Shown: piece by piece, positions 19,277-49,914 of the stretch
How the letters are laid out: each line of letters begins with the position of its first letter
Numbering within the stretch: position 1 is the stretch's first letter
Origin: a phage
Sequence record: PZ386978.1
Direction: 5' to 3' (one strand)
DNA: 64,000 nt
Program-made: the position numbers and the translations under genes
The notes under the pieces: model-generated
Databases searched by the model: none
The model's input: the letters and a program-made list of their open reading frames with translations, nothing else
What the model was told of the DNA's origin: nothing

Positions 19277-20443
19277 ATGGCAGTAGGTGAAATTCAAATT
19301 AGTGCCTTGCCTCAAGCAGCCTTACCAATTGACCTTAGTGATATCTTCCATCTTAAGCAGGGTATTGAGGATAAGAGATGTACTCTTGAGCAATTACTTG
19401 CTCCACACTCAAGCCTAAGAAATAACCCCCACGGTGTTACTAAAACACAAATTGGTTTAGATAACGTTATCAATGCTCTTCAGTTAGTTGCTGCAAATAA
19501 TTTATCAGACATTACTAATGTTGATGAGGCAAGAGCAAATCTACAGATTATGTCTTCAGAAGAGGTTAATAGCCTTGTCCAACAGCATATTAATGATAAG
19601 AGTAATCCACACAATACAACTAAAGCACAGGTTGGTTTAAGTAATGTTCAGAACTGGACAACATCTAATCTTTATAATGAAGATGCAGATAAGTACGCTA
19701 CAGCAAGAGCAGTAAATAACTTGTACAAGGCTGTTCAGGCTTCTTATCCAGTAGGTACTATCCATCTCTCTATGAATCCTGCAAACCCTTCTACATATTT
19801 AATTTGTGGGGGTACTTGGGAGTTAGTTTCAAGAGGAAGAGCACTTGTAGGTTATGATAGTGATTCTAGGCCAGTTGGTAGTAACTTTGGCTCAAGTAGT
19901 GTTAGCTTATCTAGTAACAACCTACCATCACATAGTCATTCAATCTACCTAACTGGTGGTGGACATACTCATGGGGCTACTATTACTATCGATGGCTTTG
20001 ATTACGGCAATAAGAGCACAAACAGTTTCGATTATGGAACAAAGACCACTAATAGCACTGGTGCTCACACCCACTCAGTGAGCGGTTCAACAAATACCAC
20101 AGGTAATCACACACATACTGTAGGTGGTCGTTACGGGGGTGACTCTATTGGTGGTAAACAACGTGTTCAGGTCTCAGGGACTGCTCAGGTTTCCAGTGTA
20201 GCTGGTGACCACTCACACACTATTAGCGGTTCAACAAATACCACAGGTAATCACCAACACACTGTTGCAATTGGTGCTCACACGCATACTGTTGCAATTG
20301 GTGCTCATACCCATAAAGGCACAGTAACCTTGCAGTCATCTGAGCATACTCACTCAGGTACTACAGGTACTACAGGTGCTGGTCAAGCATTCAGCGTTGA
20401 ACAACCATCCTTTGTGGTTTATGTATGGCAAAGAACCGCTTAA
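19277..20443 (+). CDS. Tail fibre protein (short) with tail-collar-like domain and HxH repeat tip
   Basis: Collar-like segment YLICGGTWE...NLPSHSHS, then repeated HTH/HSH/HQH motifs; C-terminus ...AFSVEQPSFVVYVWQRTA paralogous to the next gene. Confidence 0.75.
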   Translation: MAVGEIQISALPQAALPIDLSDIFHLKQGIEDKRCTLEQLLAPHSSLRNNPHGVTKTQIGLDNVINALQLVAANNLSDITNVDEARANLQIMSSEEVNSLVQQHINDKSNPHNTTKAQVGLSNVQNWTTSNLYNEDADKYATARAVNNLYKAVQASYPVGTIHLSMNPANPSTYLICGGTWELVSRGRALVGYDSDSRPVGSNFGSSSVSLSSNNLPSHSHSIYLTGGGHTHGATITIDGFDYGNKSTNSFDYGTKTTNSTGAHTHSVSGSTNTTGNHTHTVGGRYGGDSIGGKQRVQVSGTAQVSSVAGDHSHTISGSTNTTGNHQHTVAIGAHTHTVAIGAHTHKGTVTLQSSEHTHSGTTGTTGAGQAFSVEQPSFVVYVWQRTA

Positions 20444-20493: not shown

Positions 20494-22839
20494 ATGGCAG
20501 ATTACAAGTTGAGTGAATTAAACTCAATCGATACAATCCGTTCAGATGACCTTCTTCATGTCAGAGTTAAAAAGAGACCTGAAATGCTTGGCGATGAAGA
20601 CCGTCGAATGACCTATCAAGACTTCTTAGCATCTTTTAAACTTGAAAGATTTGTTCAGATTGCTGGTAGCACTATGACAGGTGACTTAGGAATTGTTAAG
20701 TTACTTTATGGTGGTAAGGCAGTCTTTGACCCAACAGGTTCTTCTGAGATTACTATTGGGGATGTTTTAAAGACTTTTAAAATCAACGCAAACGGCCTTA
20801 AACTGACTATTGCAGACGCTTCAAGGTCGGCAACTGTTTATCATACTCTGAATAAGCCAAGTCCTAATGAACTTGGGATGAGAACTAATGAAGAGAATGA
20901 CGCAAGATATGCAAGACTTGCTGTCACAAACACATTCTCTGGGACTCAGCAAATTCAAGGTGATTCTAACTTACTTCGCCTTAGAAACCAAAATGCAAAT
21001 AATGCACAATATATTGAAGGTGTAGACCTAGATGGTTCGGCTAGATGGTGGGTCGGTATTGGTCGCAATGGCGGTGATACAGTAAACCTGTATAACAACA
21101 AATACGACTCAGCCTTGACTGTTGCAAGTAATATTTCTGTTAATAAGTCTTTAGTAATCACTGGTCAAGTTCAACCTTCAGATTTCTCTAACTTAGATGC
21201 TAGATACTTTACTCAGACAGTTGCTAATCAGAGATTTGCACAGTTAGCTGCGAATAACACTTTTACAGGTGCTAATACTTTCACTAACCTTGTTGTTAAA
21301 AAAAATGCTAATGCTATTACTTTGCAGAATACTGATGAAGGTACAGCACTTTATATTCTCGGTAAGAAGTCTGATGGAACAAATAAATGGTATGTTGGTA
21401 CAGACTCTGATGAGACACGTCTGAACATTTATAACTACCTTACAGGTTCACAGGTTTCACTAGGGACTACTATTGGTATTAATAAAACCGTGCAAATCAA
21501 TGGTCAAGTTCAGCCATCTGATTGGACTAACATCGACTCTAGATATATTCCGGCAGCAACATTAAGTACAATTGCAAGAACTAATGCACAAAATACTTTT
21601 AATGGTGCGCAAACAGTTGTTAGTGATGGCGAAGGTTTAGTTATTAAAAACTCCACTCAGAATAGGCCATTGTATATTCGTGGTAAGGACGCTGCCAATG
21701 TATCAAGATGGTGGTTAGGTGTTGGTGACCCAAATTCTACTGATGTAGCCTTAAACAACAGCTTCTCTGGCACTCAGTTAATTTTAGGTAACTCATCTGC
21801 AAGTATCAATAAGACATTAACCCTAGCAGGGCAGATTCAACCCTCAGATTTCTCTAACTTAGATGCTAGATATTACACGCAATCTACCGCAAACTCTAGG
21901 TATATGCTTGCTTATTCTTCTGGCACTGGTACAGAGGTAGGTGATAGTGATGGCGTTGCTTGGAATGCTAAAACTGGTCTGTATAATGTTACAAGGTTTA
22001 ATGGAGGCTCAACACTACTTGTTTTCCAAATGTATCAAGGTTCAAGCTCTACTCCTTCTGCTCAATTGAAATTCGACTACAGGAATGGAGGATTTTGGTA
22101 CAGGTCATCAAGGGATAATTTTGGTTTTGAAGAGGACTTCACACAGATTTATACAGAAAGGTATAAACCAACCCCTTCAGCTATCGGTGCATACACTAAA
22201 GCAGAAACTGACCAGAAGATTGCACAGGCAGTAAGTGATTCAACAGACCTTAACAAAATCTACCCTGTTGGTATTGTAACGTGGTTTAACAGTAATGTTA
22301 ACCCTAATACAGCACTCCCTGGGTTAACTTGGACGTATCTGAACAATGGTGTTGGTAGAACTATCCGAATTGCAGCAGCAAATGGTTCAGATGTTGCTAC
22401 AACTGGTGGTTCAGATTCTGTTACGTTAGCAGTTGGAAACTTACCTTCACACACTCATAGATTCTCTGCGACTACTTCATCATTTGACTATGGTACTAAA
22501 ACCACTAACACTACTGGTGCTCACACCCACTCAGTGAGTGGTTCTACTAACAACACTGGTGCTCATACACATACAGTTGGTGGTCGTTATGGTGGTGACT
22601 CTACCGGTGGTAAACAACGTGTTCAGGTATCTGGTACAGAACAGGTATCTAGCTCTGCTGGTGCTCACGCTCACACTGTGTCTGGTACTGCTGCCTCTAA
22701 CGGAAACCATGCTCACACTGTTGGTATTGGTGCTCACAGTCATACAGTTAGTGGTAACACTGGTGGTACAGGTTCTGGTTCAGCATTTAGTGTAACTAAC
22801 CAGTTCTATAAGCTGATGGCTTGGGTAAGAACTGCTTAA
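20494..22839 (+). CDS. Tail fibre protein (long) with internal repeats, collar-like domain and HxH repeat tip
   Basis: 781 aa; three copies of a GQ(V/I)QPSD(F/W)(S/T)N(L/I)D(A/S)RY repeat; C-terminal LPSHTHRF plus HTH/HAH/HSH repeats; ends ...MAWVRTA. Confidence 0.75.
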   Translation: MADYKLSELNSIDTIRSDDLLHVRVKKRPEMLGDEDRRMTYQDFLASFKLERFVQIAGSTMTGDLGIVKLLYGGKAVFDPTGSSEITIGDVLKTFKINANGLKLTIADASRSATVYHTLNKPSPNELGMRTNEENDARYARLAVTNTFSGTQQIQGDSNLLRLRNQNANNAQYIEGVDLDGSARWWVGIGRNGGDTVNLYNNKYDSALTVASNISVNKSLVITGQVQPSDFSNLDARYFTQTVANQRFAQLAANNTFTGANTFTNLVVKKNANAITLQNTDEGTALYILGKKSDGTNKWYVGTDSDETRLNIYNYLTGSQVSLGTTIGINKTVQINGQVQPSDWTNIDSRYIPAATLSTIARTNAQNTFNGAQTVVSDGEGLVIKNSTQNRPLYIRGKDAANVSRWWLGVGDPNSTDVALNNSFSGTQLILGNSSASINKTLTLAGQIQPSDFSNLDARYYTQSTANSRYMLAYSSGTGTEVGDSDGVAWNAKTGLYNVTRFNGGSTLLVFQMYQGSSSTPSAQLKFDYRNGGFWYRSSRDNFGFEEDFTQIYTERYKPTPSAIGAYTKAETDQKIAQAVSDSTDLNKIYPVGIVTWFNSNVNPNTALPGLTWTYLNNGVGRTIRIAAANGSDVATTGGSDSVTLAVGNLPSHTHRFSATTSSFDYGTKTTNTTGAHTHSVSGSTNNTGAHTHTVGGRYGGDSTGGKQRVQVSGTEQVSSSAGAHAHTVSGTAASNGNHAHTVGIGAHSHTVSGNTGGTGSGSAFSVTNQFYKLMAWVRTA

Positions 22840-23492: not shown

Positions 23493-23518
23493 GGCTCCTT
23501 TTTACGGGAGCCTTTTTT
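23493..23518. terminator. Convergent-block terminator hairpin between the structural and early gene blocks
   Basis: Stem GGCTCC/GGAGCC, loop TTTTTACG, TTTTTT on the plus strand; lies between the 3' ends of 23114..23485 (+) and thyA (-). Confidence 0.6.
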
Positions 23519-27130: not shown

Positions 27131-27220
27131 CCATACCAAACCGTTCCCAACCCAACCCTACAGCACCGAGCCAAACCCTACCGAACCGTGCCTAACCTGA
27201 CCTAGCCGTACCTTACCAAA
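27131..27220. repeat. Pentamer-periodic array A1: 18 consecutive CCNNN units
   Basis: ccata ccaaa ccgtt cccaa cccaa cccta cagca ccgag ccaaa cccta ccgaa ccgtg cctaa cctga cctag ccgta cctta ccaaa; strict 5-bp register; C-rich plus strand, GG-rich minus strand. Confidence 0.9.
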
Positions 27221-27259
27221 CATCGCTTAAAAACCCTCTTAGAAGACGCTTAAGTGATG
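27221..27259. other. H1 hairpin with conserved loop box ACCCTCTTAGAAGAC
   Basis: 10-bp stem CATCGCTTAA / TTAAGTGATG with one G-T (G-U) position; 19-nt loop; same element recurs at 28759-28797. Confidence 0.7.
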
Positions 27260-27287
27260 TAATCGAATTTTAATGTAGCTTCGATTA
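27260..27287. other. Module A2 stem-loop: TAATCGAA / TTCGATTA around loop TTTTAATGTAGC
   Basis: 8-bp inverted repeat; loop sequence shared with the 27398-27423 stem-loop although the stems differ. Confidence 0.7.
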
Positions 27288-27290
27288 ACT

Positions 27291-27350
27291 ACCCATACCT
27301 CACCTTACTTAACCGTACCGCACAGAACCACACCAAACCTAACACCACTT
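27291..27350. repeat. Pentamer-periodic array A2: 12 NACCN units
   Basis: accca tacct cacct tactt aaccg taccg cacag aacca cacca aacct aacac cactt. Confidence 0.85.
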
Positions 27351-27397
27351 CTCATCACCTTATTAAAAACTCTGTTTAAAGACCTTTTAAAAAGATG

Positions 27398-27423
27398 AGT
27401 CTCATTTTAATGTAGATGAGACT
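27398..27423. other. Module A3 stem-loop: AGTCTCAT / ATGAGACT around loop TTTAATGTAG
   Basis: 8-bp inverted repeat with the same loop motif as 27260-27287. Confidence 0.7.
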
Positions 27424-27425
27424 AG

Positions 27426-27480
27426 CTACCCATACCTTACCTAGCCAAACCTCACCTAACCATACCAAACCCCACTCCAC
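27426..27480. repeat. Pentamer-periodic array A3: 11 CNNAC units
   Basis: ctacc catac cttac ctagc caaac ctcac ctaac catac caaac cccac tccac; followed by a CCCTCTTAAAGAC box. Confidence 0.85.
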
Positions 27481-28650: not shown

Positions 28651-28678
28651 TGGTAGATTTTTAACGTGGCTACTACCA
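28651..28678. other. Module B stem-loop: TGGTAG / CTACCA around a 16-nt loop
   Basis: Compensatory variant of the 27098-27125 stem with a near-identical loop (ATTTTTAACGTGGCTA). Confidence 0.7.
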
Positions 28679-28680
28679 TC

Positions 28681-28760
28681 CACCCATACCGCGCCCGACC
28701 CTACATTACCAGACCATACAAAGCCATACCCAACCAAACACTACCGCACCATACCGAACA
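28681..28760. repeat. Pentamer-periodic array B: 16 NNNCC/NNACA units
   Basis: caccc atacc gcgcc cgacc ctaca ttacc agacc ataca aagcc atacc caacc aaaca ctacc gcacc atacc gaaca. Confidence 0.9.
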
Positions 28761-28797
28761 TCACTTAAAAACCCTCTTAGAAGACTCTTAAGTGATG
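28759..28797. other. HB hairpin, second copy of the CCCTCTTAGAAGAC-box hairpin
   Basis: Perfect 10-bp stem CATCACTTAA / TTAAGTGATG with the same loop box as H1. Confidence 0.7.
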
Positions 28798-31010: not shown

Positions 31011-31061
31011 AAGCCCTCCTATACAAGATATAGTATAAGGTACTCTTCCCTGAGCACCTTG

Positions 31062-31590
31062 TCAACTTAGTTTTGCAAACTCTCCGTGGAGTTTTACAGC
31101 AGCTTCACAGTAAGCTTTATGGGCTTCTTCAGGTGTGTCATAGTAGCCTAATGACATCTTTTTACCTTTATAGCTTATTTGTGCAACCCACCTGCCAGAC
31201 TTCTTCTTCAGGCTTACACCTTTATAGCCTGATTTATTGGTGGATAGTTTGCTTTTATTCCAAGCACTTTGGCAGTCATCTGCTTCTCTTAAGTTTACAA
31301 CCCTGTTATCAAGGGAGTCCCCATTAATATGGTCAATAACACCTTTCGGTAGCCTACCATACACGTACAGCCATGCGAGTCTGTGTGCTTTATGTGCTTT
31401 CTTGTCAAAATAGATAGTAATCTGCTTATGACCAGTTGAGTCAATCTGGATGCTCCCCGCTACCTGTCCTGCGTACTTACTATTAAAGACTTTAACAGCC
31501 CTTGAGTCACCCTCTCTACGAAGCCAAGTAAAGACCCCTGTTTCGGGGTCATAGTGTAGTAGTTCCTTTAAACGTTCTTGTGTAATCATT
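31062..31590 (-). CDS. HNH homing endonuclease with AP2-like DNA-binding domain
   Basis: HNH segment HRLAWLYVYGRLPKGVIDHINGDSLDNRVVNL; AP2-like SGYKGVS...GRWVAQISYKGKKMSLGYYDTPEEA; start trimmed to the internal ATG (MITQERLKELLHYDPETGVFTW) that has a GGTGA ribosome-binding site. Confidence 0.8.
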
Positions 31591-31599
31591 TTGTCACCA

Positions 31600-34329
31600 T
31601 TAATGCACTTCCAACCACGATTTACCAACCTTACCAGTACCAGTTACCAGTGTTTCACTCTTTAGTCCTAAGTTCTTAGAGGCTTGACCGTAATACCAAT
31701 CAGTGACAGCCTTCACCTCTGCCGTCATACTTTCTGGGCATTCCCAACTCGTCTCGTCGTGATAGGAGCACAATAAACGAGCACCTATAGCTGGTTTGCG
31801 ACCGTTCAACTTCATCAAACCTTCGTCAATCATACGACGGCAAGCAAGGTTAATTGCCTCGTTCTGAATCTGACTTTCCGAACCCATGAGCAAATAATTC
31901 AATAACTTATGTGGAGATTTACACCACAACCAAGCTCCAGCAACCTTTACAAAACCTCCTTTAGAGATTGCAGCAGTCTTACCAAACACCTCTTCAAGTG
32001 CCTTTTTAGTTGCTTTGTAGTCAGCTTCCAAGTCATCTAGCAGCTTCTTAATTTTAGGCAAACGAATAAAGTAAGTCTGTTTAGTCAGCGCACCTTCCTG
32101 AGTAGTTGCAGCTTTAATTGTCTTAGCAAACTTCTCATCACCTGCACCGAACAGTAGTGCATAGATACCATTCTTAGCTTTCTTACGACCTTTGCTAATC
32201 TCATGAAGAAGATTCTCATCCTGAGTAGCTCGACAAGTCAAGATGTCCTGCTCATCGTTCAAGCTAAAGTAAATACTGTTCAGTGTATGTGCATCAGTCC
32301 CTGAATAGACAACGTACAGGTCATTCTCAGAGTCATAGCGAAGGTACTTATCAATTTCTGGGTTGAGATACTCATCAAAATGTTTGCAGTAATAGCGTCC
32401 ATCTTCTTGACGAATGAACTCAATTTCTTCTTTACCTTGTGTTACCGCTTTGGTGAAGTCTTTATCACCCATAAAGTTACAAAGGAGAACTAGCTGGGCT
32501 GAGTTCATGTCTACAGAGACAACGTTAGTCCCTTCCTCACAAATCCACACTGCCCTCATTGGTTCCCCATAGACAGCAGCACCAGACGGTACGTTTACAA
32601 TACCATATTGTGTCATACGTCCAGTTGAAGTACCAAACACCATTGCACCAGCACTAAGGCGACCATCAGGACGAATCTGGTTCAACCAACCTTTTTCATC
32701 ATCTTTTGAGTTCTCAATAGTTCTGCGTCGGTGCATTAAAGTATAGTACTTAGCAATCTTCTGTCCAAGCTCACCTTCAATCGTATCATAAGATGATTCA
32801 GTAAGTTTTGGTGAAGTACGGATTAAGCAAGGCTCAAGCAAATCTGTATATTTCTTCACAGACCAGTTATGCTCAATGTACTGTACACCTTCATGTTCAA
32901 CATAACTCAAACCACATCGTTCCACCATTTCCTGCCACTTAGGATGTTTTGTAATCATCTTTTTATTGTCTTTGAAACGACAAACTTTGACAGGGCGACC
33001 GTCTGAGTCTTTCTTGTAGTTCCAGTCATCTGGAATCCAACCAACTGATTTCAAGTAGTCTTTAACAACTGCTACCTGAGTCATACGAGAAACTTCGAAC
33101 TCAATTGGTGTATATGGTGCATCAATCAAACCTGTGTAGCGACTTGACTCAAGTTCAAAGTGGTTAACAACGTGACTGTTATAGTACTTCACAGTTTTGA
33201 CTGTTTTTACTGGCTTCCAGTCTTTGCACTTCTTACCAATCTTTGCGTTCAACTCATTGCAAATTGCACGAGCATCCTTCATTGCTACAAAACCTTCCTT
33301 GTACTCTTCACCAGTTACAGTGTTGGTTGGTGTATAGCAATTCCTTTTCTCAATGTTAAAAATCTTTGTAGTTGGCTTACCAAATGGCTTGATTTCATAT
33401 GTTTGCATCTCGCCGTTACGTACCTGCTGACGATACTTCGTCTTAGGGTACTTGGTAATTCTTTTCAGACCATCTGCATGACCGAATGTTTCAACATACT
33501 CATTCCAAGCTTTTGCAAACTCTTCTCCAGTGACTTTACCTTTGGTCTTAATAGTTGGAGGAAGATGTGGTTCAACCTCTGAAGCAAGCTCATTAGTCAA
33601 TTTGTCAAGTTCCTTCACATGGAACTCCATAAGCTCTTTATCAGCTTTCCAGCCATTAATAGCTTGTTGACTCATCCAGAAAGATGTCTCTTTAGCTCGC
33701 ATGTAAGTCTCATAAGTGTCTATACCACACTTCTTAAGCTTGAGATACTCGTTATCAAGTGCCCGTTTAGTTTTGGCGTTAATACGGATATCTTCTACAA
33801 CACGAGTGAAGATTTCTGCATTCCACACACCCCAATGTTCAATCTCTGGTTTACGGACACCAACACGAGCACCCCATGCAGCCAAACCATGAGCACCTTT
33901 ATAACCCTTTGGAGTTGGTCTATCCATCCACTGAACACGAGACTGGATAAGAGAATCCTGAAAGAAATTACTCCACGGCTTACATTTTGGATTATCAAAG
34001 TTCCATAAATCAGGTGCAATGTGATTGAAAACCCACCAGTCATAGCCGAGACCATTATGGATGCAAAGACGTTTTGCCTTTAACGCAAATTCAACACCTT
34101 CACGTAAGCCGCCCTTGATGTACTTGGTATACTTGTGACCGAGGATAGGCTCATCTGTAAAGACCCATACAGGAGGCTCTTCATCGTCAGATTTATAGTC
34201 TGCAAAAGCCATTACGTGAACTTTAGTGAACTCAAGGAGTAAACCATCAGTCTCTGTATCACCAACTAAATGTAAGTTTTTAAAATCTACGTTTTCCATT
34301 TTTACTCCCTCTAAAATCATTAACCTCAT
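31600..34329 (-). CDS. DNA polymerase, family A (T7-like), with 3'-5' exonuclease domain
   Basis: 909 aa; exo motif VGDTETDGL; motif A-like VSVDMNSAQLVLL; motif B-like KKAKNGIYALLFGAG; motif C SYHDE. Confidence 0.9.
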   Translation of the reverse strand: MRLMILEGVKMENVDFKNLHLVGDTETDGLLLEFTKVHVMAFADYKSDDEEPPVWVFTDEPILGHKYTKYIKGGLREGVEFALKAKRLCIHNGLGYDWWVFNHIAPDLWNFDNPKCKPWSNFFQDSLIQSRVQWMDRPTPKGYKGAHGLAAWGARVGVRKPEIEHWGVWNAEIFTRVVEDIRINAKTKRALDNEYLKLKKCGIDTYETYMRAKETSFWMSQQAINGWKADKELMEFHVKELDKLTNELASEVEPHLPPTIKTKGKVTGEEFAKAWNEYVETFGHADGLKRITKYPKTKYRQQVRNGEMQTYEIKPFGKPTTKIFNIEKRNCYTPTNTVTGEEYKEGFVAMKDARAICNELNAKIGKKCKDWKPVKTVKTVKYYNSHVVNHFELESSRYTGLIDAPYTPIEFEVSRMTQVAVVKDYLKSVGWIPDDWNYKKDSDGRPVKVCRFKDNKKMITKHPKWQEMVERCGLSYVEHEGVQYIEHNWSVKKYTDLLEPCLIRTSPKLTESSYDTIEGELGQKIAKYYTLMHRRRTIENSKDDEKGWLNQIRPDGRLSAGAMVFGTSTGRMTQYGIVNVPSGAAVYGEPMRAVWICEEGTNVVSVDMNSAQLVLLCNFMGDKDFTKAVTQGKEEIEFIRQEDGRYYCKHFDEYLNPEIDKYLRYDSENDLYVVYSGTDAHTLNSIYFSLNDEQDILTCRATQDENLLHEISKGRKKAKNGIYALLFGAGDEKFAKTIKAATTQEGALTKQTYFIRLPKIKKLLDDLEADYKATKKALEEVFGKTAAISKGGFVKVAGAWLWCKSPHKLLNYLLMGSESQIQNEAINLACRRMIDEGLMKLNGRKPAIGARLLCSYHDETSWECPESMTAEVKAVTDWYYGQASKNLGLKSETLVTGTGKVGKSWLEVH

Positions 34330-40167: not shown

Positions 40168-41214
40168 ATGGAGAAGTACACATTAACAAAGCTTCCCGAT
40201 TCAGTTACACATGTTTTTATTGACTCTGACAGCATTGCCTATAAAGGTGCTTGTGTAGTTGAGAAAGCAAAATATAAATATGTCAATAAACTCACAGCAG
40301 AAGAATCTGATTCGTTTGATAATGCAAAAGATGCTGCAAGATGGTTAGCAGACCAGAGAATCCTTGTGGAAGAGCTTGGTCTGACATTTGATGAAGATGA
40401 ATGGGAAAGACAGACTTGGAAAGAAGCTAAGAGTGAAAAAGAAGCTATCATGGCTACTCAACAGGTGCTTCAGGAATGGCTTAAGGTTGTTGGTAAAGAA
40501 AGAACTTGGGTAGGTTATTTAACAGAGAAAGGTGTGCATAAACATAAAGACGTTAAAGGTCTTGAGCACCAATATCAAGGCAACCGTAAAGATGCTGTCA
40601 CACCAACACACCTAGTTGCTTGTCGTGAGTATCTTCTGTCAAGACCAGAGTTCAAACTAATTCTTGATGGGTTTGAAGCCGACTCTATCGTTATTGCTAA
40701 AGCTGAAAAGATGGGTAAAAAGGCTGCCTTAATGAGTATTGATAAAGACCTTCGCCAAGCTGAAGGAACTTACTGCATTGATATGACCTATGAAAAGTCA
40801 CCTTTGATTTTCATTGCTGATAACAACGTTGGTGAAATTTGGGATTGCCCAATAAAATCAACACCAAAAGCTAAGAAGACAGTTGGTGTAGGTTTTAAAT
40901 TCCTTTGTTATCAAGCTGTGGCTGGTGATAACGCGGATAATTATTTTGGTTTAAAGGGCGTTGGTAAGGCTACTGTAATGAAAGCCCTTGAAGGTAAAAC
41001 CACCTACAAAGAGTGTCTTGATGCAATTTATGAGCTTTATGCTAAGAAAGAGTCGTACACTTATGTCTCGTGGGATGGTCAAACAATTACCAGAACACCC
41101 TTAGAGTTAATGCAGCAACACTTTTTCTTAGCTTATCAGGAAAGAAACAAGAAAGACGATTTCACTTTTGATAAGTATGGGTGGACACCAAATGTTAACT
41201 CAACAAACTCTTAA
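40168..41214 (+). CDS. 5'-3' exonuclease / RNase H (FEN family)
   Basis: 348 aa; N-terminal VFIDSDSIAYK; helix-hairpin-helix-like GDNADNYFGLKGVGKATV. Confidence 0.75.
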   Translation: MEKYTLTKLPDSVTHVFIDSDSIAYKGACVVEKAKYKYVNKLTAEESDSFDNAKDAARWLADQRILVEELGLTFDEDEWERQTWKEAKSEKEAIMATQQVLQEWLKVVGKERTWVGYLTEKGVHKHKDVKGLEHQYQGNRKDAVTPTHLVACREYLLSRPEFKLILDGFEADSIVIAKAEKMGKKAALMSIDKDLRQAEGTYCIDMTYEKSPLIFIADNNVGEIWDCPIKSTPKAKKTVGVGFKFLCYQAVAGDNADNYFGLKGVGKATVMKALEGKTTYKECLDAIYELYAKKESYTYVSWDGQTITRTPLELMQQHFFLAYQERNKKDDFTFDKYGWTPNVNSTNS

Positions 41215-41692
41215 AGAGCACCTGCACTATGACCCCGAAACAGGGGTCTTTACTTGGTTAGTTGATAGAACAGGTAAGGCCAAAGCTGGCTCAGTAGCAG
41301 GTTTTAAACACCATAGCGGTTATATCTATATAAAACTCTTCGGAAAAAGATATGCAGCACACAGACTGGCATTCTTGTATATGAAAGGATACCTCCCAAA
41401 ATTTGTTGACCACAAGAATTGTATCAGACACGACAACTGGTTCGACAATTTGAGAGAGTGTAGCAGGTCAGACAACAACTGTAATGCAGTCAAAAGAAGA
41501 GATAATAAGTCTGGTGTGAAGGGTGTATATTACCACAAGCAAAGAGGTAGATGGGCTGCACAAGTTAAGCATAATAAAGTTTGCTACCATCTAGGCCTAT
41601 TTGACTCTGTTGCTGAGGCTGAAAAAGTTGTCAAAAAGAAAAGAGAAGAACTCCATAGAGAGTTTACAAATCACGGAGAAACTCATGAATGA
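41192..41692 (+). CDS. HNH homing endonuclease with AP2-like domain (paralogue of 31062..31590)
   Basis: MLTQQTLKEHLHYDPETGVFTW N-terminus; HNH segment HRLAFLYMKGYLPKFVDHKNCIRHDNWFDNL; AP2-like SGVKGVYYHKQRGRWAAQV; start trimmed to the ATG with a GGGTGGA ribosome-binding site. Confidence 0.8.
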   Translation: MLTQQTLKEHLHYDPETGVFTWLVDRTGKAKAGSVAGFKHHSGYIYIKLFGKRYAAHRLAFLYMKGYLPKFVDHKNCIRHDNWFDNLRECSRSDNNCNAVKRRDNKSGVKGVYYHKQRGRWAAQVKHNKVCYHLGLFDSVAEAEKVVKKKREELHREFTNHGETHE

Positions 41693-42189
41693 TTAAAGTT
41701 AAAGGTTTTGGGAGTTGCCCCACTTATGGTCACTGGATTTCACTATGTGGTGAAGTTGACCCAGCAAAGCACTTTGGTTTTGTCTACCTAGTGTACTGCA
41801 AAAAGACTGGACAGTACTATTTGGGTAAGAAGCAGCTTAACAGTGTGACCAAAAGAAAAGTTGCTGGGAAGACTCGGAAGAAGGTAGTCACTAAGGAGAG
41901 TGATTGGATGACTTACGAGACTTCTTCTGAGTATATTAAAAAAGATATTGATAGCTTTGGAAAAGAATTTTTTGACTTTTACATTATTCAAACCTACTAC
42001 ACAAAAGGTGGCCTAGTCTATGGTGAAGCAAACCTTCAACATAAATTCGATGTAATGACAAAAAGGATTGACTCGAAGCTCAGACTCTTCTACAATGCCA
42101 ATATTGCAGCAATTAAGTTTATTACTAAAGAAACTTATGAAGATGCTGAAAAAAGAATCCATAAGGTAATGAAAGCAAATTGTGCTTGA
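41689..42189 (+). CDS. GIY-YIG family endonuclease (candidate)
   Basis: 166 aa; N-terminal FGFVYLVYCKKTGQYYLGKK resembles the GIY-(10-11 aa)-YIG motif. Confidence 0.55.
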   Translation: MIKVKGFGSCPTYGHWISLCGEVDPAKHFGFVYLVYCKKTGQYYLGKKQLNSVTKRKVAGKTRKKVVTKESDWMTYETSSEYIKKDIDSFGKEFFDFYIIQTYYTKGGLVYGEANLQHKFDVMTKRIDSKLRLFYNANIAAIKFITKETYEDAEKRIHKVMKANCA

Positions 42190-49172: not shown

Positions 49173-49914
49173 TAACAAGCTCTATAGCTCATCTAAAACG
49201 TGCCTAAACAGGGAAACTCTACAGGTGTAGACAATCCTGTGCTAAATGATGTACGATGTAAGAAACTATATGACATAGGAGTATTACATGCCAAATTATC
49301 ATGTTACTGAAGACGGAAGAGTCTTTAGGAAAAATGGTGTAGAACTTAAGCAGTGGAAATCCAACACTGGGTATATGAAAGTGAGGTTTTACGGTAAGAA
49401 GAATCGTGACATGTATGTTCATAGGTTAGTTGCTGAGAAATATGTACCTAACCCGAACAATCTTCCAATTGTAAAACACAAAGATGATAACAAACTGAAT
49501 AACCATGCTTCTAACTTAGAATGGGGAACTCATTCTGAGAATGTTAAAGAAGGTTATGAAAATGGTTGCTACAAGTTTTGTAAGCGTTCATATGCTGTGA
49601 AGGCTACACACAAAGTAACAAAAGAAGTTATTGTTGCGAACTCGATACGAGAGTTGTCCAAGATGCTTGGGTATAATCGCAAGACTATCTCTTCAATACT
49701 GAAGGGTGTAAAAGAATATAATAACTTTGAACATGAATTTGAATACATCTAAATGCCGAACGACTAACCGTGATGAATGTAGCGGTGTAGGGTCAAGCGA
49801 CTCGAAATGGTACGCTACTTAGAAATAAGTAGAAGATATAGTCTGGACTTACTGGCGACAGTAAGCAGCTTGAATAAAGCGGGGTAAGCTTAGCGAACTT
49901 ACCTGAACAACAAG
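49173..49914 (+). mobile_element. Group I intron in nrdD carrying an HNH homing endonuclease gene
   Basis: Exon 1 ends in U and the intron ends in G (...AACAAG); intron 3' region contains AGATATAGTCTGGAC; joining the exons gives ...SPMG|CRAFLSPY.... Confidence 0.7.
49288..49752 (+). CDS. Intron-encoded HNH homing endonuclease
   Basis: 154 aa; HNH segment HRLVAEKYVPNPNNLPIVKHKDDNKLNNHASNLEWGTHSEN. Confidence 0.8.
   Translation: MPNYHVTEDGRVFRKNGVELKQWKSNTGYMKVRFYGKKNRDMYVHRLVAEKYVPNPNNLPIVKHKDDNKLNNHASNLEWGTHSENVKEGYENGCYKFCKRSYAVKATHKVTKEVIVANSIRELSKMLGYNRKTISSILKGVKEYNNFEHEFEYI

Follow-up and report, generated by a model that had tools for sequence, protein, structure and literature searches.

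Two homing-endonuclease genes of a Felix O1-like myophage (Ounavirinae) were found to carry an identical 18-nt hairpin, GACCCC-GAAACA-GGGGTC, at the same codons near their 5′ ends, and comparison of related alleles supports its maintenance by purifying selection at the nucleic-acid level. Judging from the patterns of sequence conservation, the constrained unit is this hairpin, probably together with a partly conserved U-rich tail, and not the whole 33-nt segment in which it lies. Homing endonucleases are selfish and potentially toxic, and their control outside the T4 group is largely unstudied. Here a control element is apparently hidden in the synonymous sites of a conserved peptide motif, and it persists in numerous alleles, at both insertion slots and in more than one genus of phage. 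As such it is a natural example of overlapping protein and nucleic-acid codes.

The DNA analysed (the window) is a stretch of 64,000 nucleotides from sequence record PZ386978.1, whose region 40900-42000 matches Felix O1 and related phages at 97% identity. Both genes encode homing endonucleases of the HNH_3 plus AP2 type. HEG A (allele type A1, 166 aa) lies at 41192..41692 on the plus strand, as given in the initial annotation, and HEG B (allele type B1, 175 aa) lies at 31062..31589 on the minus strand, its boundary having earlier been placed one base too far, at 31590. The Pfam HNH_3 domain (cut-off 24.8) was recognized with 46 bits in HEG A and 54.2 bits in HEG B. For AP2 (cut-off 33.3), HEG B scored 50.5 bits; HEG A, with 31.4 bits, fell just under the cut-off, yet it aligned with HEG B across the domain. 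The two proteins are 43% identical, and no more paralogues of this type were found in the window.

Each gene follows an essential gene. The 5′ end of HEG A overlaps by 23 nt the 3′ end of a 5′-3′ exonuclease gene (40168..41214, plus strand), and any transcript entering HEG A passes through the exonuclease gene. The DNA polymerase gene (31600..34329, minus strand) immediately precedes HEG B, which starts 10 nt past the polymerase stop codon. Comparison with the empty site of phage JLBYU32 defined the slot-B insert as 533 nt (31066..31598, minus strand), bounded by the polymerase stop codon and by a TTGACA (31060..31065, minus strand) that is common to filled and empty forms. This hexamer overlaps the HEG B stop codon and, from its letters, is a possible −35 box. 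In relatives, slot B holds HEG B, holds another HNH-AP2 allele or is empty, and slot A was found to contain at least three very different allele types in different phages. Both slots are therefore fixed sites between conserved genes with presence/absence or allele replacement. HEG A and HEG B are free-standing homing-endonuclease genes, for which homing and cleavage are predicted from sequence.

Further insertion-related features were noted around these slots. Directly after HEG A, at 41689-42189 (plus strand), lies a SegE-like GIY-YIG homing endonuclease gene (Pfam PF19835, E = 1e-26), which is labelled 'NAD synthetase' in several public records. Its ATG overlaps the HEG A stop codon (ATGAATGA), and since it adjoins HEG A, two different selfish nuclease genes stand in tandem after the exonuclease gene. 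A third homing-endonuclease-like ORF at 49288-49752 (plus strand) matches HNH_3 (E = 2.7e-10) and, weakly, NUMOD1; neither an AP2 domain nor a hairpin copy was found in it. The DNA polymerase is here a single 909-aa ORF (31600-34329, minus strand). In VpaE1, BPS15Q2, REP10, BPS17S6, and Mushroom it is annotated as two parts, which in the records of VpaE1 and BPS15Q2 are separated by an annotated endonuclease gene. The split looks like another variable insertion site. In a Salmonella phage Si3-like contig (L217, IMG/VR contig 2974574300), the beginning of the A-type gene has lost its reading frame or is broken immediately ahead of the motif (…stop-RIPTL-stop-PETGVFTW…), which suggests a decayed copy or a sequencing frameshift.

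The 33-mer shared by the two genes, CACTATGACCCCGAAACAGGGGTCTTTACTTGG, occurs exactly and only twice in the whole window, at 41225-41257 (plus strand) and at 31524-31556 (minus strand). As the initial annotation had reported, both copies are exact and in frame, and they form codons 12-22 (HYDPETGVFTW) of HEG A and HEG B. No further match with up to three mismatches was found in the window or in 100 shuffles. The block consists of a CACTAT flank, the hairpin and the U-rich tail. In HEG A the hairpin occupies codons 14-19 (DPETGV) at 41231..41248 (plus strand), and the identical 18-mer occupies codons 14-19 of HEG B at 31533..31550 (minus strand). The stem-loop that had been described within the 33-mer is present in both copies, with six base pairs (five of them GC), a 6-nt loop and a predicted fold of −12.6 kcal/mol; both copies thus have the GC-rich stem and short loop of intrinsic terminators. 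Directly after the hairpin comes the tail TTTACTTGG (codons F-T-W), at 41249..41257 (plus strand) in HEG A and at 31524..31532 (minus strand) in HEG B. Both places are terminator-like sites, and the tail is partly conserved among alleles. No other copy of the palindrome with up to two mismatches was found in the window, and Rfam 15 gave no match at the gathering score across its whole length.

The identity of the two copies exceeds chance. The paralogues had been described as diverged over most of their length, and outside the block they use the same codon at 29 of 61 identical degenerate residues, so their synonymous sites are saturated. Just upstream of the block the codon differs at five of six identical degenerate residues, and it differs again at the leucine just downstream. 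For two independent draws from the codon usage of the window, agreement at all 11 codons has P = 3.8e-4. Moreover, the stem is built from codons that are rare in the window, namely CCC (4%), GGG (7%), and GTC (10%). The flank codons CAC and TAT, however, have an agreement probability of ~0.26 from codon usage, which is roughly chance level. The earlier proposal of selection on the entire 33-nt segment is accordingly narrowed: it holds for the hairpin and the partly conserved tail, but not for this flank. Stem, loop and most of the tail in the A/B pair represent the constrained consensus, and the exact identity of the two copies may be explained by shared constraint plus chance agreement of the two flanking codons.

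Alleles from other phages were gathered by protein homology, by stem-free degenerate DNA patterns and from annotated genomes. They fall into nine types whose proteins are 33-75% identical (A1-A3, B1, B1b, B2-B4 and, from a Klebsiella Jedunavirus, KpV52), and GACCCC...GGGGTC is present in nine out of nine. In their codon alignment a single codon each was found at D14 (GAC), P15 (CCC), T17 (ACA), G18 (GGG), and V19 (GTC), wherever the residue is present, whereas other conserved residues are encoded by 2-5 codons, with a pairwise codon identity of ~0.45. The remaining four-fold G, P, V, and T columns conserved in all nine alleles use 3-4 codons each. The initial annotation had called for exactly this comparison of synonymous sites across related phages, and its outcome, one codon per stem residue as opposed to two to five elsewhere, favours selection at the nucleic-acid level, the first of the two readings it had offered. 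The loop does vary, with consequences for the protein: T becomes I in GAAATA (two allele types), E becomes D in GATACA, ET becomes DK in GACAAA, and E becomes V in GTCACA. Flank codons also vary (CAC/CAT/GAC/GAT/GAG/ATT, TAT/TAC, ACT/ACG/ACA, and TTT/TTA/TTG/TTC). The stem arms are invariant across 33 distinct low-GC contexts. Low-GC loci are bimodal, with either the full stem or ordinary codons, and none of the one-step G-U wobble variants (GAT, CCT, GTT) was found at these loci, though they are the preferred codons.

Sequences that encode YDPETGVFTW and have this loop and tail were collected in two complete scans, in which the third positions of the stem were left free; 51 were obtained. A perfect stem was found in 28 of these, all Ounavirinae-type alleles, and no stem in the other 23, all of unrelated lineages. 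The alleles are short and mosaic, and by protein identity to B1 the non-hairpin relatives (46-49%) are no more distant than the hairpin-bearing alleles (42-49%). B4 and KpV52 retain nothing of the block but the two 6-nt arms; their loop and both flanks are different. The arms are common to at least nine allele types and two unrelated phage groups, Ounavirinae and Jedunavirus. The tail is weaker in the stem-keeping alleles B3 (TTAACAT) and B4 (TTCTACA); since their T-tract is poorer with the stem intact, the stem is better conserved than the tail.

Recent gene conversion had been offered as one explanation for the identical segment. Recombination is clearly active in the endonuclease family, as read from the alignments, and gene conversion may contribute because alleles of one slot have their 5′ and 3′ ends in common, with bodies only 30-60% identical. 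In the alignment of A1 with A2, the end of the 33-mer is followed at once by a fall from 97-100% to ~50% identity. A single recent event, however, does not fit these sequences as an account of the identity. In the comparison of B1 with B3, the hairpin is an island of 90% identity between 53-70% upstream and 30-50% downstream. In A1 versus A3 it forms a local peak of 87-90%, with ~75% in the flank and 27-57% in the gene body. An identical tract with ends unrelated to the functional unit and absent elsewhere, as gene conversion would leave, was not found among these alleles.

A broader version of this idea holds that the block has no function of its own, and that repeated recombination or gene conversion keeps it identical as a shared crossover point (concerted evolution). 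The common ends of one-slot alleles and the drop after the 33-mer in A1 and A2 are what it would predict, and the slots do show presence/absence and allele replacement. Exchange of homing-endonuclease genes at one locus is moreover documented in other phages (PMC10448857). Yet the hairpin is an island with diverged sides both in B1 versus B3 and in the A and B copies of the window, and the flanks of the 18-mer are suggested to be as deeply diverged as the gene bodies. The process would also need tracts that match the arms exactly, because only the arms survive in B4 and KpV52, and it is not credible that such tracts arose in lineage after lineage. It would moreover leave the rare codons and the independent hairpins of T5-like phages (described below) without account. 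Concerted evolution is thus considered an unlikely explanation. Selection at the nucleic-acid level, the other explanation originally put forward, is supported by the stem codons that are invariant in nine alleles, the variable loop and flanks, the islands of identity and the different hairpins of T5-like phages.

The slot-B alleles also share sequence at their other end. In four of them (L126, L132, L133, L145) the last ~70 nt (…EEAHKAYCEAAVKLHGEFAKLS) have 93-100% nucleotide identity with window positions 31062-31135 (minus strand), with bodies at 30-50%. The HEG B stop codon lies inside the TTGACA (31065..31060) that is kept at the empty site. This shared 3′ end looks like a right-hand recombination arm, a downstream promoter, or both.

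Folding was examined in 42-nt motif windows from 240 distinct homologues, each compared with 200 synonymous recodings drawn from the codon usage of its own locus. All 22 of the 22 Ounavirinae windows fold better than their recodings (p <= 0.05, median z −3.5). The other 217 family windows showed no folding excess (median z −0.02). The hairpin as a general trait of the family was ruled out, as codons vary freely across ~120 unrelated YDPETGxFxW contigs and the 217 non-Ounavirinae windows have z ~0. In T5-like coliphages and Salmonella phages (H8, VSe12, VEc33, slur09, and others), different perfect hairpins were found at the same codons. One of these, CTCCCCA-GAAAC-TGGGGAG, encodes Y-S-P-E-T-G-E, and another, CGCCCG-GAAA-CGGGCG, encodes R-P-E-T-G; both are then followed by TTTA[CT]TA, and the amino-acid changes preserve pairing. 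In a high-GC contig (L078), GACCCG-GAAA-CGGGTC is followed by TTTTTTATT, which begins TTTTTT. The hairpin has apparently been reinvented with other sequences in the T5-like phages. An RNAalifold consensus across lineages recovered 3 pairs only, the loops being 6, 5 or 4 nt long and the register shifted by up to one base, and within Ounavirinae the arms are invariant and not covarying. Folds of 139 nt gave ordinary z values for the alleles (−1.0 to +1.0), and the shared element is the local hairpin only.

That self-complementarity recurs although the sequences and amino acids differ speaks for a folded single strand rather than for a fixed recognition sequence in double-stranded DNA. On the latter reading, which we regard as improbable, the DNA palindrome GACCCC-N6-GGGGTC would be a protein-binding site, for example for the AP2 domain of the endonuclease itself, and would serve in autorepression, as a roadblock (compare the I-TevI operator) or as a recombination mark. 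Arms that are strictly invariant in Ounavirinae and Jedunavirus, lack wobble variants and enclose a free spacer are typical of sequence-specific half-sites, and this pattern, which also fits sequence-specific recognition, counts against a terminator. An AP2 domain is said to have been found by Magnani and co-workers in 2004 to bind G/C tracts, reportedly poly(dG). A preference of AP2 domains for GC-rich targets has been reported (PMC10448857), and the arms here are C4/G4 in a genome of 39% GC. A precedent exists in the known autorepression by homing endonucleases (PMC2988022). The T5-like arms, however, differ in sequence and register, so that it is self-complementarity and not sequence that recurs. 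Moreover, one and the same site would have to be recognized by all the AP2 domains, which differ greatly between alleles, and the palindrome occurs nowhere else in the window.

Like the I-TevI operator, the palindrome is conserved DNA near the 5′ end of an endonuclease gene and could be bound by the gene product's own DNA-binding domain. The I-TevI operator is similar to the homing site and overlaps a promoter, whereas the palindrome here lies within the ORF and its sequence differs between related alleles. In a more specific form of the DNA-site idea, the palindrome would be a docking element whose C4/G4 arms are bound by AP2, which would repress its own transcription, and it would also mark the left joint of cassette swaps at one slot. 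This is judged highly unlikely; if true, a coding palindrome would be operator and recombination joint at once.

The function preferred here is that hairpin and tail form, within the gene, a weak terminator or a barrier in the RNA that limits endonuclease expression, a tentative proposal that rests on analogy and falls a little short of probable. A read-through transcript from the upstream essential gene (exonuclease or DNA polymerase) would carry the hairpin followed by UUUACUU. When the poorly translated endonuclease ORF is free of ribosomes, the hairpin and UUUACUU could form a weak intrinsic terminator, or a barrier at the 3′ end of the RNA. The expected outcome would be low endonuclease expression together with a stable end for the upstream mRNA. 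After HEG B, the TTGACA could restart downstream transcription. A strong terminator at slot A would be harmful, because the downstream genes are on the same strand.

Among known systems, the nearest analogue is the terminator inside the 5′ part of mobE and segF in T4. In these genes a weak terminator lies in the 5′ coding region, with ~30% termination in mobE, and a promoter after mobE restores downstream transcription (PMC2988022). Several endonuclease genes of T4 overlap the upstream ORF by 11-24 bp, and such overlap has been linked to coupled, low-level translation (PMC2988022). The arrangement in the window is alike in several respects. A GC-rich hairpin with a short or weak U-tract is found early in a free-standing endonuclease ORF, at codons 14-19, in the 5′ part of a gene that follows an essential one. 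The ORF abuts or overlaps the essential gene, without an obvious promoter of its own, and the role proposed is likewise to limit endonuclease transcripts. At slot B the TTGACA, a possible promoter element, comes after the endonuclease gene, in the place that the nrdB promoter has relative to T4 mobE. The likeness is one of arrangement; the endonuclease family differs, the genes here being of the HNH_3 plus AP2 type. Unlike in T4, the hairpin is encoded within a peptide motif (DPETGV) that is itself conserved, and it does not vary among alleles of 33-75% protein identity or between phage genera; its U-tract is interrupted, and termination is predicted from sequence. If the attenuator reading is true, the widespread HNH-AP2 family would come under the mobE/segF principle as well.

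Both hairpin copies pass the terminator rule that was applied, with the tail TTTACTTG, which has 5 T in 8 and an interrupted tract (TTTACTT); the tails of B3 and B4 would fail it. The interruption, and the still poorer tracts of B3 and B4 next to an intact stem, count against a terminator. In non-coding DNA of other phages the same stem was found with a long T-run, where it looks like an ordinary terminator. The window contains 24 perfect GC-rich 6-bp hairpins, compared with 7.1 expected, and 8 perfect hairpins with at least five GC pairs, compared with 0.5 expected. Apart from the two endonuclease copies, the latter strong hairpins are intergenic and mostly followed by T-runs. The other intragenic perfect hairpins (~6) have four GC pairs and match the shuffle expectation. 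The number of terminator-like sites in an 11.6-kb region equals the shuffle expectation, which is a further point against a terminator. Sigma-70-like promoter matches show no excess over shuffles and were therefore given no weight. One promoter-like site that matches at 10 of 12 positions lies after slot A, at 42068-42096; such matches are at shuffle level.

Intergenic GC-rich perfect hairpins with T-runs have stem starts at 23493, 43829, 47936, 53349, 56909, and 62834. Several of the intergenic hairpins share the core GGCTCC-N4-GGAGCC, and they look like ordinary terminators. The endonuclease hairpins resemble the intergenic Rho-independent terminators of Felix O1-like phages (for example GGCTCC-TTCG-GGAGCC followed by TTTTT) in stem length, GC content and loop size. 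They differ in lying within coding sequence and in their tail, TTTACTT, whereas the intergenic terminators mostly have runs of 4-6 T. In the Felix O1 genome paper terminators were searched for in intergenic regions only, and that search is therefore silent on the intragenic site.

Part of the pairing is dictated by the peptide itself. GAC and GTC are reverse complements, as are CCC and GGG, and by the genetic code D-P-x-x-G-V forces three of the six stem pairs (A-T, C-G, and Y-G). A full Watson-Crick stem is nevertheless expected in only about 1 in 10,000 random encodings. The three forced pairs lend some plausibility to a neutral process in which template-switch 'correction' would keep the quasi-palindrome D-P-x-x-G-V perfect without functional selection. 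As correction toward the other arm changes the protein, restoration alone would be allowed, and a self-reinforcing process of this kind would give the bimodal distribution of perfect stem or none. The process would, however, have to act in Ounavirinae, T5-like phages and Jedunavirus but not in other groups, and most low-GC family members with the same peptide show no pairing trend. Intragenic perfect hairpins are also not in excess in the window, the excess being intergenic and mostly accompanied by T-runs. This neutral account is thus very improbable, and its pervasive form is disfavoured by the ~6 other intragenic hairpins at shuffle expectation.

The hairpin could also act as RNA in a different way, on translation or processing, by slowing early elongation, modulating re-initiation or positioning an RNase E cut in the AU-rich tail. 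No other structure recurs in every allele's predicted fold, and alleles with a poor T-tract still keep the stem. The 23-nt overlap of HEG A recalls the coupled translation of T4 genes, and RNase E is known to process the transcripts of segB and segG (PMC2988022). Yet the hairpin is located at +40 to +57, outside the initiation footprint, and no pairing with the ribosome binding site (RBS) or AUG was seen in any allele. Its distance from the upstream stop codon differs as well, being 17 nt in slot A and ~50 nt in slot B. An action on translation or processing is therefore taken to be decidedly unlikely. An RBS-sequestering or long-range structure was ruled out in folds of six alleles, in which no consistent RBS or AUG pairing was found. 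In I-TevI, I-TevII, I-TevIII, segB, and Aeh1 mobE, an RNA hairpin likewise lies at the 5′ end of the homing-endonuclease message and lowers expression; those hairpins include the RBS or start codon, unlike the element described here.

The hairpin is easily testable, since four synonymous changes destroy the stem. It also calls for caution in applied work, as codon-optimizing or synonymously recoding phage genes may hit such elements.

Some other features of the window were noted in passing. No tRNA genes were found across the whole window. ACC-rich intergenic repeats with a period of ~10 nt occur at 27154-27475 and 28658-28797, with three copies of a 68-89-nt unit (families D5 and D6). His-rich repeated coding units (…GGTGCTCACACNCAT…) were found at 20027-20320 and 22483-22750 (plus strand), and they are common to the adjacent ORFs 19277..20443 and 20494..22839, which are probably tail-fibre genes.
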